Positions 5,586 to 57,512 are shown, counted from the stretch's first letter. The stretch is 64,000 bases of DNA from Vairimorpha necatrix (GCA_036630325.1 CP142735.1:310001-374000), one strand, 5' to 3'. The notes: a model not told the origin generated them from the letters alone. Translations and numbers: made by a program.

Positions 5586-6296
5586 GTTCTTAATTTAATT
5601 TTTTTATATATACGTAATCATCTTTAATTATTTCTTCAACATTTTCAATATTATTCACTTCTTTTTTAAATTTCCTTTCCATCAAAGATTTATTTGAATT
5701 CTTCCTAAATACGGCTGCGTTTCTTATTTCTTCTAGTCTCTTTACCATTTCTAAAAAGTCATCGTTAATTACGGAAAAACTTACAGTTGCTTTCTCAATT
5801 TCTTCGCGCATCTTACGTAAGCCGAGAAAATTGATCAAAAAATCAATTCCTAGTCCTCAATTATAGTATCGCCTAATTTTTTCATTCTTCTGAAAAATTC
5901 AAAACATTTTTCATCCTTCCTTTGGTGATCTTTGAATAAATCTCTTTTTGATATTTTGTTTTCAAATTTTGTTAACATAAAATCTTTCCAGTCACTATAT
6001 ACTATTTTCCTTTATTTTTTTTTTGTTTTTCGTATTGTAGGTGGGCCTTAAAAATTCCATCATCTGCCTTGTCAAGAATTTTCTCGATTTTGTCTTCATC
6101 GGACAAGGACTTATAAATCTTTTTCCTTTCTAAACATTCAATTTTAGCTTTAATATCTTTACCCGTGATTTGTAGGGTAAACTTAGCTAACAACTTTATA
6201 ATGTCTTCGTTTTCTTTATTCTCCACCATGTTAGACATATCCAAGTTAAGGGGTATTTATTTATAAAATATATCTTTGAATATTTAATTCACAACA

Positions 6297-6461
6297 CAAA
6301 CATTGGCGTACTTGCGAATTTAAAAACGACCATGCAACTTTCGTTTGTTTGTTTGTTTATGCGACTCATCTTGACAGATCGCTTGAGGTGTTCATCGGCC
6401 GATATCTTTGACATCTGATAGTATTGACAGCTGTTTATGTGATGTAGTTATGTACATCACA
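6297..6461 (-). repeat. 5' part of a TGTGATGTACAT-family LTR
   Basis: Reverse complement begins TGTGATGTACATAACTACATCAC and shares AAACAAACGAAAGTTG..GTACGCCAATGTTTG with the LTR at 3492-3841. Confidence 0.8.
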
Positions 6462-6559
6462 GTTTTTATAAGAGTTTATTGATTTTAAATAAAATATTCC
6501 AAAAATAAGAAGGGGAAATAATTAAAAATGTAAAATACATTTTATGAGAGATAGAGGTG

Positions 6560-52813: not shown

Positions 52814-55800
52814 TGTCAATAGATTTATTGTTGTCCTTCATCAAAATTAGGGGTTTATAAAATTTAAAAATAAATATCAACATCCCCCTTCTTAAAACAT
52901 ATCGTCAACTATTAATTTCAGCTGTGCAGCATGCCTTTTAAATCTTCTACAACCAACATCAATTATGTAAGTGTTGTTATCGAGGGAGTCAACTACCATT
53001 CCTCTGTTTAAGTATTTTGGAGCACCTTTTTTAATTATGCCTTCGTTCCTTATCATCACAACATCCCCCTTTTCGAATTTGTATTCCGCTGGTTTCCTTT
53101 CATGCTTTGTTTTGAATTTTAATATTTGCCGTAGTTGTGTTTGTTTCAATTTCTCAGCATTTTCTTCATTACATGCTTCTGTTGGAGTCATTATAATTCC
53201 AGTGTGAATGTGGTGTTGTATACGTGTAAGGCATGTATTAATCTTCGTGTCAGTAGTTTAGCGGTAATATTCTTATAAATAAGGTCCTGTAAAGTCCTGT
53301 TAAAACGCTCTACCCTTCCATTTGATTGATGATGGAATGGTGAGGTATAATGCAGACTAATATTCTTGTCGGCACATAAATTTTTAACTGCATTTTCCAA
53401 ATTTTCTTTAGATTGATCTAGAATTAATGTTTTTATCTTTAACTTTTCATTGATCTCTTTAATAAATTCTGCGACTTTTTAGGTTTCACGCGATTTAATT
53501 ATCTTAGCAAATCCGTATCTTGTAAAATAATCAATTCCGGTGATAATGTATTGGTTATTAATAGGGCCAATAATATCAATGGCAACCTTCTCCCCCTTCT
53601 CGTATGCTGTTACATATAAGAATCTTCTGTCCTTTTTTGGATTATATTTTGCACAAATAGTGCATCTTTTAATAACCTTTCTTATCACTTCTTCCACGTT
53701 TTTTACCTTAAATCCCCTTTTCTCGATTTCATACTTCATAGATTGTATCCCTATATGCAAGAGCTCTTTATGGATTTGCTCTATCTGTTCTATAAGGCAA
53801 ACTGTTCTTTCAACTTCATTTATCGTAGGCTGTGAATCTAATTGTGGGAGAGGGCTAATTTCAGCTGAACAATTGGTAGGGTTTCGGCTCAGACAGTCTA
53901 CGTGTGGTATCTCCTTTCCTTTTTTATACTTTATTTTAAAACTAAAATTAGCAATTCTCTCCAACCATCTTTGTATTCTTAACGACTTTATTTCTCCTTT
54001 ATTTAGTGCCTCTACGGCTTTATGGTCCGTTACGACTTCAAAATCAGTACCATACAAAAAATACTTAAAATGTTCCATGTCCCATAGTATTGCTAGGCAT
54101 TCCTTTTCACTTATGCTGTATTTTATTTCCGTTTCCTGCAGTATTCTGGATGCAAAAGCTACGGCTTTATCTTCACCTTCGAACTCTTGGGATAATATCG
54201 CAGCTATCCCACTGTTTGACGCATCTGTCTCTAATTTAAAGTACTTATTAAAATCTGGTTGTGTCAATTCTGTGCTATGTTTAAGTGAATTTATGAGGGC
54301 TAGGAATGCATTGTTTTCTGCTTCTCTCCAGTAAAACGTCTTATCACCCTTTAACAAATCATAAAGGGGCCCGCCTATTAATGAACAATTGGGGATGAAT
54401 TTTCTATAGTAATTTATCAGCCCTAGGAATTCCTGTACTTTCTTCTTATCTTTCGGAGGCTCTAGATCTTCGAGCGCCTGTGTTCGTTTCACACAAGGTA
54501 GTACTTTATTATAGGTTATTTTGTGGCCCAAAAATTTCACTTCCTCTTTTTTGACAATTGATTTGTCCATATTTATATCCATATTATATTGTTTAAGTAT
54601 ATCTGTAACTCTCTTATATGCCTCGTCATGTTCTATCTCATTCCTACCAAAAACTAGAATGTCGTCCACATAGCAATAACATGACTTACCGAGCTCACTA
54701 TTCAGAACATGATCCTTGTGGCATTACTGTCCACTCATATAGCACATGCTTGTATCGGAATGCTGTTTTGTGTCTATCTCTAACACTTAATGGTATCTGA
54801 AAAAATCCGTCTTTCAAGTCGATCGTAAAAAAAACTTCATACCTCTTAAATTGCATAATATTTCGTCGATATTTGGTAACGAATAACGATCCAGTTCGAC
54901 GAGATTGTTCAATGCCACCCAATTAGTCGTTATTCTAACCTTTCCATCCGGCTTTATTACTGGTCGAAGATTATTTAGCCAGGAGGAATTCGACTTACGA
55001 ATGTATCCTTTCTCAATGAGTGTCTTTATTGATTTATCCGCTTTAACTTCTAGCTTTTTTGGTAAAGGGTATACCTTTTCCACAACCTTACATCCTTCTT
55101 TTGTTTTTATTTCACAAATATATTTAAATTTATCTTTGTTCATCACCTTCTTTATCGTGTTTACTCCTATCAGAATTTTCTCAGATTTAACCTTTGGGAG
55201 GACATAGAAATCGGCCGTACATTTAATGTTTTTATATTTAAATTCTAGTGAAACATATTGTTTAATACTGAATTGTTCTTCCAAACAGGTCTAGAATTTT
55301 ATTTCCTCATTCAGTTCTTTAGGTATGAGTGATAGTCTATGTATCACTGAGTAACTCATAAAATTATATCTTGCACCAGTGTCAAATAAAACTGCAACTT
55401 TTACGTCTTTAACATAGATAAAACTCTCTTTATTTAAAATTTCTGCAATATCTTCGCTTATCTCATTAATTCTTCTAGATCTATCGGTCTCTTTTCCGTT
55501 ATTTCTCACATTTTCTGGGTACTTTCGACATGACCTAGCGAAATGACCCCGTCGTCCGCATTTATAACATCCTGTAGACCTAGAATTTTCGTTAATTTTT
55601 AAAGCAGTTAATCTTTCTAAAAGAGAACTTATGTTGTTCTTCTTGTCTACTTGTTTCTCTTTTTTCTTTTCTTCTTCCATGCTATGAATTCTCTGGAGTT
55701 CTCGAGCTCCTATTGATTTAACTGACCATAGATATTTTTTGGCTGAAGATGCCCAAACACCCCCCCTCAGAGGGTGTTCACTTTATTTTTTCGAACCCCA

Positions 55801-57512
55801 AAATTGAAGTGCAAAAAAAGGAGGAGCAAGAAGGAGACAAAAATTTCTAACCACTTTACATATTAAAAATATAAAATAAATAAATATATATATATTTAAA
55901 TACAGAATTTAATTTTAAACTAGAAAATACTTCCCGTCTTTATTAGAACTTGTTTTTGGGGCATATTAAATTCTCTATATTTTACTTTATATTTTGGTTA
56001 TTTGCCCCTACTTTTAAGAAATGCCAGAAGAAAAATATAAAGACGTAGAAGAAATCATGCTTAAATGCATTGATTCATGCATATTAGGGAGATTTTGTCC
56101 AAAATGTCTTGGTAATATGAAAAAGACAAAGGAAACACAAAATCTTATAAGATGTAGTAAAAAAAGATGTAGGTTTGAAATGCCTTTAGTGTATAAAAAC
56201 CTTTTTTCCGAACAAAATTAAGTTGGTTACAAATAAGCCAAGCAATATTTCTGTTTATAAACAATACTCACGCTAAAACAATAATTAAAATATTATCAAT
56301 AAGTAAAAAGGCGGTATATAGAACAATAAAAAACATTGCAAAAGACCTAAAAAGCAATGAAATGATTGGTGGTCTAGACATCATAGTTGAAATAGACGAA
56401 TCTAAGTTCGGTAAGCGAAAAAATCATAGGGGACATAAAGTCGATGGAGTATGGGTTCTTGGGATGGTTGAAAGGACCACACAAAGGAAAATAGTGTTAG
56501 TAGAAGTAGAAAATAGGAAGGCAATTACAATATAAAGTGTAATTCTCAAATATGTTAAAGCAGGAAGTATCATATATACAGATTGTTGGAAAGGCTACGT
56601 AAACCTTTTCAAATTTGGCATATACAGACATTTTACTGTTAACCACTCCATTGGTTTTGTAAACTTGACGACAGGTGTACACACAAACCACATCGAAGGT
56701 ACATGGGCAGGCGTAAAATTAGGAATTCCGTTTAGATATAGGTCCAAAAAACATATTACACCTTGGTTAAACTTATTTGTTTTTAAAAGAAATAATCGAA
56801 AAAATACGTTCGAAAAATTAATGTAAATCACTTTTGATTAAATAAATCAATTTAAAATTAAATTCTGTATTTAAATATATATTTATTTTATATTTTTAAT
56901 ATTTAAAGTGGTTAGAAATTTTTGTCTCTTTCTTGCTCCTCCTTTTTTTGCACTTCAATTTTGGGGTTCGAAAAAATAAAGTGAACACCCTCTGAGGGGG
57001 GGGGGTTTCGGATCCTTCCTCCTATTTTTTTATATCGCTATTACCTGCATTCAGTCCTTCTGCGATGATGTCTACAATTTCTAAATCGCTCAACTTATAG
57101 ATACAAGCCTTTTCTTTTACCCTTTCTATAAAGGCTACAATGCCTTCGTTCTCATCCTGGTTTAATCGGTATATCTCACCCAGGGAAATCTCTTTCTTAC
57201 CAAATACTTCTTTGGCGGACTTTAACCATTTTTCATACATTAGAGCGCACTTTCTTCGCGACTCTAGAAACTCCTCATGCCATTCTATAATGGCGTACTC
57301 TGCTCTTCCTATGATGTATTCAATTTTATCTTCGTCATTCTTGTTGATGAAGAAAGACATCATTCCAAGTCTCTTACATTCTTGAAGAAGGTTACGGATT
57401 GTTATAACCATGTTTATGGGCTTTGATGTCCCATTCTCCACCATGTCAATAGATTTATTGTTGTCCTTCATCAAAATTAGGGGTTTATAAAATTTAAAAA
57501 TAAATATCAACA
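52814..57512 (-). mobile_element. Ty3/Gypsy element with identical 69-bp LTRs and frameshifted gag-pol; split by Merlin 55741-57022
   Basis: LTRs 52814-52882 and 57444-57512; TSD ATCAT/AACAT; PBS TGGTGGAGA; PPT GAAGGGGGA; CYKCGRRGHFARSC, LFDTGA, YVDD, TDAS, integrase 52892-53700. Confidence 0.94.
55741..57022 (+). mobile_element. Merlin/IS1595-like transposon with long (>150 bp) TIRs
   Basis: 8-bp TSD TATTTTTT; mirrored CCCCCCTCAGAGGGTGTTCACTTT...; [23 protein letters not shown]. Confidence 0.92.

Follow-up and report, generated by a model that had tools for sequence, protein, structure and literature searches.

Terminal repeats of 49 to 124 bp that hold the start of the gag-pol frame in Ty3/gypsy elements of Vairimorpha necatrix

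Introduction

Retroviruses and long terminal repeat (LTR) retrotransposons rebuild their ends from three regions, U3 (unique 3'), R (repeated) and U5 (unique 5'), and the natural minimum length of these ends is not settled. The question of how short an LTR can be is raised by a stretch of 64,000 nucleotides of the microsporidian Vairimorpha necatrix (GCA_036630325.1 CP142735.1:310001-374000), here called the window, to which all coordinates refer unless another locus is named. A reading of this DNA made from the sequence alone had proposed that five elements in it share a micro-LTR design: an AT-rich tract, a CCCC or GGGG motif and an ATG inside the LTR, followed by a terminal CA that joins a primer binding site (PBS) beginning with TGG, giving an in-frame methionine. 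From this it had derived a translated PBS, almost no leader and an unusually compressed scheme of replication and expression. The locus thus poses two questions, namely whether repeats of this length are true LTR ends, and how an element could be expressed and copied from them. We consider it likely that the elements are near-minimal, recently mobile Ty3/gypsy retrotransposons, in which the LTR combines the integrase ends, a host-style core promoter, the first gag-pol codons and one AATAAA.

An intact element with 49-bp terminal repeats

The most complete copy, element A, lies on the minus strand and has a total length of 3184 bp. Its 5' LTR (19754..19802, 49 bp) opens with TGTTATA and contains a TATA-like tract, CCCC at LTR positions 25-28, an ATG at 34 and an AATAAA at 40 before the ACA end, and its 3' LTR (16619..16667, 49 bp) has 1 mismatch to it. 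Directly after the 5' LTR stands the candidate PBS (19742..19753 for its first 12 nt, beginning TGGGGGCG, with the translation Met-Gly-Ala-Ile), and directly beside the 3' LTR stands the polypurine tract GGAGGGGGGA (16668..16677). The element is flanked by the target site duplication TAGAA/TAGAA (5/5; 16614..16618, with its partner at 19803-19807).

The open frame of element A (16695..19769) begins within the 5' LTR, crosses the LTR-PBS junction and runs for 1024 codons. It takes up 96.6% of the element and is the single intact frame of more than 400 codons in the window. Besides a zinc knuckle it encodes reverse transcriptase (RT), RNase H and integrase, with the Pfam domains RVT_1 at residues 311-471, RT_RNaseH at 561-665, Integrase_H2C2 at 732-787 and rve at 807-885; this order of RT, RNase H and integrase is that of Ty3/gypsy. 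The CCHC zinc knuckle is weak in A (E 0.001-0.004) and is matched at E 2.6e-5 in element D. Residues 139-310 (18840-19355, minus strand), between the zinc knuckle and RT, gave no Pfam match, a protease included, even at E up to 10, and an invariant D-[ST]-G column is absent from an alignment of 22 family sequences, while protease (retropepsin) domain matches were obtained in elements B, D and E. Judged from these searches, the 3.2-kb lineage of A may be without a protease of its own.

The short repeats as LTR ends

The domain order, the LTR pairs, the target duplications, the polypurine tracts, an empty site, the frame that runs from the 5' LTR across the junction and the conservation in the family together establish the structure of these elements, and confirm those of the window as genuine LTR retrotransposons of the Ty3/gypsy (Metaviridae) type. 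On the element strand, the LTRs start with TGTT in A, B and D and with TGTC in C, and all four pairs end in ACA; by sequence, these ends fit the Metaviridae LTR integrase signal TGTTRNR...YNYAACA given in the accessible part of PMC3601003. Target duplications of 5 bp surround the three younger elements (5/5 in A and in B, 4/5 in D), and in the same three a G-rich polypurine tract immediately precedes the TGTT of the 3' LTR. A fourth RGGGGGATGT site, at 53061-53070, was considered and discarded as an LTR edge, being coding sequence of an integrase C-terminus (KGDVV).

Contigs from four public sequencing runs were compared with element A. One contig of run X19 joins position 16615 to 19807, with 3191 bases skipped and 2 letters between; because 3191 bases correspond to the element plus one duplication, this contig represents the empty site of A, and the 49-bp repeats are therefore the real ends of a mobile unit. 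The contig is short, its left side differs at 5/49 letters, and it may derive from a diverged allele or strain. The same run also holds the filled form of the insertion (16614-16618 / 19803-19807), which suggests either a polymorphic insertion or a close relative that lacks it. In runs X1 and X3, contigs of copies that are ~97% alike exit A exactly at 16619 and 16618 into two different and unlike flanks, pointing to other insertion sites. Contigs of 3165 nt in X2 and X19 consist of one LTR, the body and 30 nt, the length that is expected when a 3135-nt repeat unit is assembled from a word graph. The elements have probably been mobile recently.

Layout of the LTR and of its junction with the primer binding site

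Six 5' ends can be compared in the window, those of elements A to E and that of a sixth element whose body leaves the window. Each LTR has an AT-rich tract, a C or G run (CCC in the sixth), an ATG and one AATAAA. In five of the six LTRs (A-E) a CCCC or GGGG run stands 2-11 nt before the LTR ATG, so that these five have the motif described for microsporidian promoters, CCC- or GGG-like and at most ~15 nt ahead of the ATG. The LTRs of A, B, D and E contain exactly one ATG each, in frame with the junction ATG, and that of C has an extra ATG far upstream and out of frame. The AATAAA is found once in 6/6 LTRs, compared with a background frequency of 2.6 per kb and strand. Its place varies: in A, C and D it comes after the ATG and ends 4, 10 and 10 nt short of the LTR end, in B and E it precedes the C run, and in the sixth 5' end it lies just before the ATG.

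In all six elements TGG comes directly after the 5' LTR, and in A to E the LTR-terminal CA together with TGG forms a second ATG, in frame with the one inside the LTR. The junction coordinates of the sequence-only reading (6229, 19754, 32990, 44793 and 57444) each mark, on the minus strand, the base with which the LTR ends and after which TGG begins. The junction peptides that it listed (KH-MGA, FN-MAP, FD-MAT, ID-MVE and SN-MVE), its four PBS strings and its distance of 4-10 nt between AATAAA and the LTR end in three elements could likewise be read from the DNA. The junction ATG is partly automatic, since any CA that meets TGG yields ATG. Its place in the frame reflects inheritance of that frame within one family and not five independent origins.

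The layout as a whole is more specific. CATGG sites of the window were examined on both strands for a CCC/GGG run at most 15 nt before an in-frame ATG that itself lies at most 30 nt from the junction. Of the 85 CATGG sites, 7 have this arrangement of run and ATG, and 5 of the 7 also have the AATAAA. These 5/85 sites are exactly the five reported junctions, with the full layout at 0/80 sites elsewhere.

Conservation in related elements

The named relatives of the A polyprotein are microsporidian, from Nosema granulosis (80% identity over 77% of the query), V. necatrix (58%) and Enteropsectra breve (48%). When the 44 closest relatives were aligned, 13 were cut or unalignable at the N-terminus, leaving 31 informative sequences that are 41-98% identical. 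Met stands in the junction column in 28 of these 31, with kinship shared among them; 20 of the 28 have a further Met 2-5 residues upstream and 8 start at the junction. Ahead of the junction Met stands H, Y, D or N, as encoded by an NAC codon before the junction ATG (whose A ends the LTR), and after it A, G or V, from a codon starting with the G of TGG. The pattern M-x(1-9)-[HYDN]-M-[AGVED] occurs in 21/40 M-starting proteins of the family versus 0/74 other Ty3/gypsy matches, and in 3/140 representatives of a wide search. The layout persists across changes of the PBS (MAN.., MAT.., MAS.., MAP.., MGA.. and MVE..), and the first residues past the junction Met are shared by proteins that are merely 45-60% identical, a recurrence expected from a nucleotide-level constraint on the PBS.

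Further DNA loci came from a metagenome scan (5 loci) and a genome scan (3 loci); a scan of viral contigs yielded no related locus. In L001, L002, L006, L007 and L008 no exact direct repeat of at least 14 nt was found at a distance of at least 1500 nt, and none has both LTRs. Single LTR-like ends, with a guessed outer boundary, measure 49 nt in L002, 38 nt in L006 and 47 nt in L008. In L002, an unrelated metagenome locus, the 49-nt end of a minus-strand element is followed by TGGCACCCGAT, which is also the PBS start of element B, and the 47-nt end in L008 encodes MIGNDH-MATP. The wide representative search added few compact relatives. Of the 150 matches listed, 27 were picked, mainly by length (537-1294 residues), and serve as leads only; 6 of the 27 have [NK]-M-[AV] near the N-terminus, 1 has Leu in the same frame and 1 has His-Gly. 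Many database relatives lie on contigs of 3.0-3.3 kb, which suggests that the family is widespread.

At the other end of the element, the C-terminal peptides of 10/44 relatives (P0007, P0015-17, P0020, P0025, P0029, P0034, P0035 and P0038) spell the polypurine tract plus TGTT, ending in ..GDV in 6, ..GGC in 2 and ..GML in 2, so that the polyprotein reading extends past the polypurine tract into the 3' LTR, and does so in all three frames. The same is seen in L006 (2700-2780 of that locus), where the frame crosses the polypurine tract and stops within the 38-nt LTR-like stretch. Three frames are hence used at the 3' end, whereas the frame at the 5' junction is near-fixed. Lineages of this kind retain no internal non-coding DNA.

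Expression and replication

In canonical LTR reverse transcription, identical LTRs need an RNA that starts inside the 5' LTR and has R repeated in the 3' LTR. If replication is canonical here, R plus U5, and with them the strong-stop DNA, are therefore at most as long as the LTR (49-69 bp). The accessible text of PMC2803860 describes a CCC- or, rarely, GGG-like motif just before the ATG in most genes of Encephalitozoon cuniculi, and also in Nosema ceranae and Anncaliia algerae; by rapid amplification of cDNA ends, E. cuniculi 5' untranslated regions are shorter than 7 nt, and AAUAAA is used but leaky. The background invoked by the sequence-only reading, of CCC/GGG motifs near the ATG and very short 5' untranslated regions, agrees with that source. 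By analogy, the CCCC/GGGG run of the LTR would fit these published signals as a promoter signal.

An expression scheme on this model is plausible. The core promoter would consist of an AT-rich or TATA/AAATTT-like tract followed by the CCCC/GGGG run, and the RNA would start a few nt past the run, giving a leader of a few nt. U3 would then measure ~25-45 nt in the LTRs of 49-69 bp, and would be longer in C with its LTR of 124 bp. R and U5 together would come to ~11-34 nt, with a minus-strand strong-stop DNA of tens of nt. Where the AATAAA is upstream of the start (B and E) it would act at the 3' LTR only; where it falls within 20 nt of the cap (A, C and D) it would be passed over at the 5' end, and cleavage at the 3' LTR of these three elements may occur at or beyond the LTR end, with a U5 near zero. 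The first strand would be primed by a transfer RNA (tRNA) whose 3' end pairs with the TGG... stretch; tRNAs with proline-, lysine- and alanine-type acceptor ends are conceivable primers. The junction ATG would be the sole start in lineages without an upstream ATG and probably a back-up start elsewhere. Going by the sequences, the upstream ATG appears to have the host-like context, with the junction ATG as the apparent sole start in 8/31 relatives.

Several observations weigh against this picture. In the 3' LTR of A, the single base difference changes the LTR ATG to AAG. The junction residue is D, H or L in 3/31 relatives and 8/31 have no upstream Met, so that neither ATG is universal; the 28/31 with the junction Met, moreover, do not amount to 28 independent events, because the relatives share ancestry. 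The sixth 5' end has its CCC 19 nt ahead of the ATG, and the LTR-like end of L008 has no run of three C or G. With just 4-10 nt between the AATAAA and the end of the LTR in A, C and D, cleavage in these possibly takes place in flanking DNA. No PBS could be matched to a tRNA, be it the tRNA-like gene of the window or, with the complement of the L008 PBS, any in the bin G001. Finally, the frame of D is in at least five broken pieces despite its identical LTRs.

Another possibility, which we regard as unlikely, is that the junction ATG is the real and sole start, with an RNA that begins between the LTR ATG and the LTR end, an R of less than ~15 nt and an upstream ATG that is incidental. Such a start would agree with the retention of the junction Met in nearly all relatives, with the predicted proteins that begin there without an upstream Met, with the variable 2-5 residues between the upstream Met and the junction, and with the loss of the upstream ATG from the 3' LTR of A. 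Nevertheless, it is the upstream ATG that has the C/G run 2-11 nt before it, as true microsporidian start codons do. In addition, 3/31 relatives keep the upstream Met without a junction Met, the minus-strand element of L002 has His-Gly translated at its junction, and the presence of a single in-frame ATG in each of the LTRs A, B, D and E would have a chance of 1 in 3 apiece if this ATG were not used.

We find it highly improbable that the micro-LTRs have no promoter of their own and depend on read-through from neighbouring genes, with the C/G run and ATG there by chance or hitch-hiking. Transcription overrun and polycistronic RNAs are documented for E. cuniculi in the accessible part of PMC2803860, read-through transcription is common in microsporidia and U3 would have just ~25-45 nt, yet the canonical two-jump scheme does not allow identical LTRs to be rebuilt from an RNA begun ahead of the 5' LTR, the run, the ATG and the AATAAA recur in mutually unalignable LTRs of elements whose pol segments are 22-55% identical to A, and no CATGG site outside the elements has the full layout. 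That the short repeats arose by chance or through assembly errors, or are what is left of longer LTRs, is scarcely credible and was not supported when tested: short two-copy repeats are frequent in AT-rich DNA, E is without a partner and has an uncertain boundary, and another element of the window has repeats of ~220 bp, but the A 49-mer has 2 matches in the window and 0/100 shuffles gave 2 matches, the polypurine tract, the TGG and the 5-bp duplications lie precisely where the repeats stop, and the empty-site contig starts at the repeat ends, as do the unlike flanks in other runs, with 3165-nt contigs of one LTR, body and 30 nt in two runs.

Primer binding sites and tRNAs

The sole tRNA-like gene of the window, a Met (CAT) gene predicted by ARAGORN at 27724-27796 (minus strand) with a perfect 7-bp acceptor stem, fits no PBS. 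Rfam at its gathering score reports no tRNA at 27724-27796, and the gene may be degenerate. It lies 138 nt downstream of the B 3' LTR in the same orientation, a position that recalls the integration of Ty3 next to RNA polymerase III genes. In the bins behind L006 and L008 the tRNA matches are clustered, with several per contig, and from this arrangement alone they are taken to be bacterial. In G001, the bin containing L008, a search with the L008 PBS complement gave 0 forward matches and 3 reverse matches, one in L037, which is identical to L008 over the printed stretch, and two that are chance-like. Self-priming as in Tf1 was also considered and set aside, as inspection by eye found no PBS complement in LTR B.

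Comparison with known elements

The near-minimal Ty3/gypsy elements described here can be set beside several known systems. To our knowledge, the shortest LTR is that of mag of Bombyx mori, a Ty3/gypsy element with unusually short LTRs of 77 bp; with 49-69 bp, those of A, B and D fall below this length and hold the start of the frame. The Schizosaccharomyces pombe elements Tf1/Tf2, also Ty3/gypsy, share the single gag-pol frame, and in one source a Nosema granulosis relative is named 'Transposon Tf2-9 polyprotein'. Tf1 has LTRs of several hundred bp and self-primes from the 5' end of its own RNA, whereas the PBS here opens with TGG directly after CA.

The GAG start of yeast Ty1 (Ty1/copia) lies within its 5' LTR as well. 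Ty1, however, has an LTR of ~330 bp, a longer R-U5 and a copia-type domain order, in contrast to the LTRs of ~50-70 bp and the gypsy-type order seen here, where the frame of many relatives extends across the polypurine tract too. In the accessible text of PMC4974528, Ty1 measures 5.9 kb and has two frames (one frame here), and its PBS lies in the GAG frame. A translated PBS is therefore not new in principle. Of the compressed scheme put forward in the sequence-only reading, the frame through the LTR-PBS junction holds for A and most relatives, while the translated PBS as such was already known from Ty1; overall, that interpretation is partly supported.

Miniaturised LTR elements with short LTRs have been described as TRIM elements (bioRxiv 10.1101/137141, accessible part), but these are below 1 kb and non-coding, whereas element A carries coding sequence for an RT, RNase H and integrase of its own. 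Microsporidia-specific Ty3/gypsy groups with a single polyprotein are described in the accessible part of PMC4202319 (Parisot et al. 2014; cited again in PMC13174016), and resemble the present elements in their single gag-pol frame, their microsporidian host and the presence of Merlin/IS1595-type transposons alongside. As far as the supplement of PMC4202319 was accessible, Consensus_retroA of Anncaliia algerae has a similarly G-rich polypurine tract, AGGAGGGGGA, and differs in its terminal repeats of ~170 nt without a TG start or CA end, compared with TGT...ACA repeats of 49-124 bp here. Within the literature covered, which was incomplete so that an earlier report is possible, no LTR lengths are stated for microsporidian elements, and neither LTRs below 77 bp nor a layout of this kind were found.

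What is new here, in our rating, is the extreme shortness and the layout within a known, single-polyprotein gypsy type, which is well supported as structure. Tentatively, these could be the most compact autonomous LTR retrotransposons yet, with ~3.1-3.2 kb in total, LTRs of ~40-70 bp, an R plus U5 of about 10-35 nt, a frame through the PBS and often the polypurine tract, no internal non-coding DNA and, in the lineage of A, no recognisable protease. If so, they would mark a natural lower limit for LTR content, and first-strand transfer and integration would work with repeats far below the 100-bp floor of one LTR-finder setting. An element that is autonomous, has LTRs of 49 bp and still shows presence/absence polymorphism would be a natural minimal system for asking what is the least R for strand transfer and the least U3 for a promoter, and how coding sequence can double as PBS and polypurine tract. 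In one benchmark, LTRharvest was run with -minlenltr 100 (bioRxiv 10.1101/137141, accessible part); at such a setting these elements would be missed or annotated as LTR-less internal parts, which could bias both the repeat content determined from structure and the dating of insertions in microsporidian genomes.

Other elements of the window

With a G+C content of 24-36%, the window is AT-rich, and it forms a graveyard of mobile elements. Its stop-to-stop frames contain the Ty3/gypsy domains retropepsin, RVT_1, RT_RNaseH, Integrase_H2C2 and rve, together with many pieces of ISXO2/IS1595-type DDE transposases. With the intact polyprotein of A as query, tblastn finds eight gypsy-like bodies, 3 on the plus strand and 5 on the minus strand, the latter being E (223-3147), A (16698-19769), B (28817-30704), C (37280-40652) and D (52931-55116). 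The gypsy elements of the window are old, separate lineages, because the matched pol segments of the others are just 22-55% identical to A.

For the paired LTRs, repeat finding returned the lengths that the sequence-only reading had given. All of B to E lie on the minus strand, and motif positions are counted within the LTR. The 5' LTR of element B (32990..33049, 60 bp) has AATAAA at 27, CCCC at 33 and ATG at 39, and is followed by the PBS beginning TGGCACCCGAT. Its 3' LTR (27935..27993) has 59 bp and is preceded by the polypurine tract GGAGGGGGA (27994-28002), and the target duplication is TATTA/TATTA (5/5; 27930-27934 and 33050-33054). Element C spans 8828 bp. Its 5' LTR (44793..44916, 124 bp) has GGGG at 93, ATG at 97 and AATAAA at 109, with a PBS beginning TGGCGACT, and its 3' LTR (36089..36211, 123 bp) is ~83% identical to the 5' LTR. 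In this old and nested element no target duplication was left when it was checked for, and the polypurine tract is degenerate; pieces of ISXO2-like transposase are nested inside.

In element D the 5' LTR (57444..57512, 69 bp) has AAATTT at 18, CCCC at 30, ATG at 42 and AATAAA at 54, with a PBS beginning TGGTGGAGAAT. The 3' LTR (52814..52882, 69 bp) is 100% identical to it, the polypurine tract AGAAGGGGGA occupies 52883-52892, and the target duplication is ATCAT/AACAT. Element D may have been copied recently in a defective state; alternatively, homogenisation may account for its identical LTRs. Over ~1.2 kb of D (55783-57021) there is no frame of 120 codons.

Of element E only the junction-proximal part of the 5' LTR can be placed (6229..6296, presumed 68 bp), with CCCC at 44, ATG at 59 and a PBS that also begins TGGTGGAGAAT. 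No partner LTR was found within the window, and the 25 nt upstream of the presumed TGTT start recur at 52331 and 52673 beside other sequence, for which reasons the LTR length and outer boundary of E are not established. The boundary is further blurred by an adjoining copy of a repeat family of ~190 bp, which begins TGTGATGTACAT, ends ..CAATGTTTGTGTT and is found at 6297-6461 (minus strand) and, on the plus strand, at 50979-51123, 52550-52700 and 52331-52359. Inside E there is a perfect 300-bp direct repeat (3492-3791 and 5236-5535, plus strand, 1744 bp apart), each copy of which opens with the hairpin-like TGTGATGTACATTGCTACATCACA. The repeat overlaps the 5' end of an ATG-started frame of 343 codons (3730-4761; 353 codons stop to stop), for which Pfam gave no match. 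The sixth 5' end (50..112, minus strand) is an LTR-like stretch of 63 bp that ends TTTA and is followed by TGGTGGAG, with the translation Met-Phe-Met-Val-Glu.

A further gypsy-like element on the plus strand has longer repeats and apparently no RNase H or integrase part. Its direct repeats of ~220 bp (9329-9549 and 11766-11991), 2437 bp apart, are 80-97% identical over aligned blocks, enclose just a gag-protease piece and an RT piece, and do not end in CA. Seven frames match the ISXO2/IS1595-type DDE transposase model (1124-1654, 14057-14830, 20759-21124, 24431-24991, 38498-38887, 40730-41530 and 47802-48257); these are taken to be Merlin-like, and some of them are nested within the LTR elements C and E. 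A DDE_3 piece (Tc1/mariner-type) lies at 51260-51655. On the plus strand, a frame of 155 codons at 62278-62745 matches DUF5906 (E 6.5e-7) and a VapE-like domain, families that we take to be phage or virus primase-helicase proteins and that are unexpected in such a setting.

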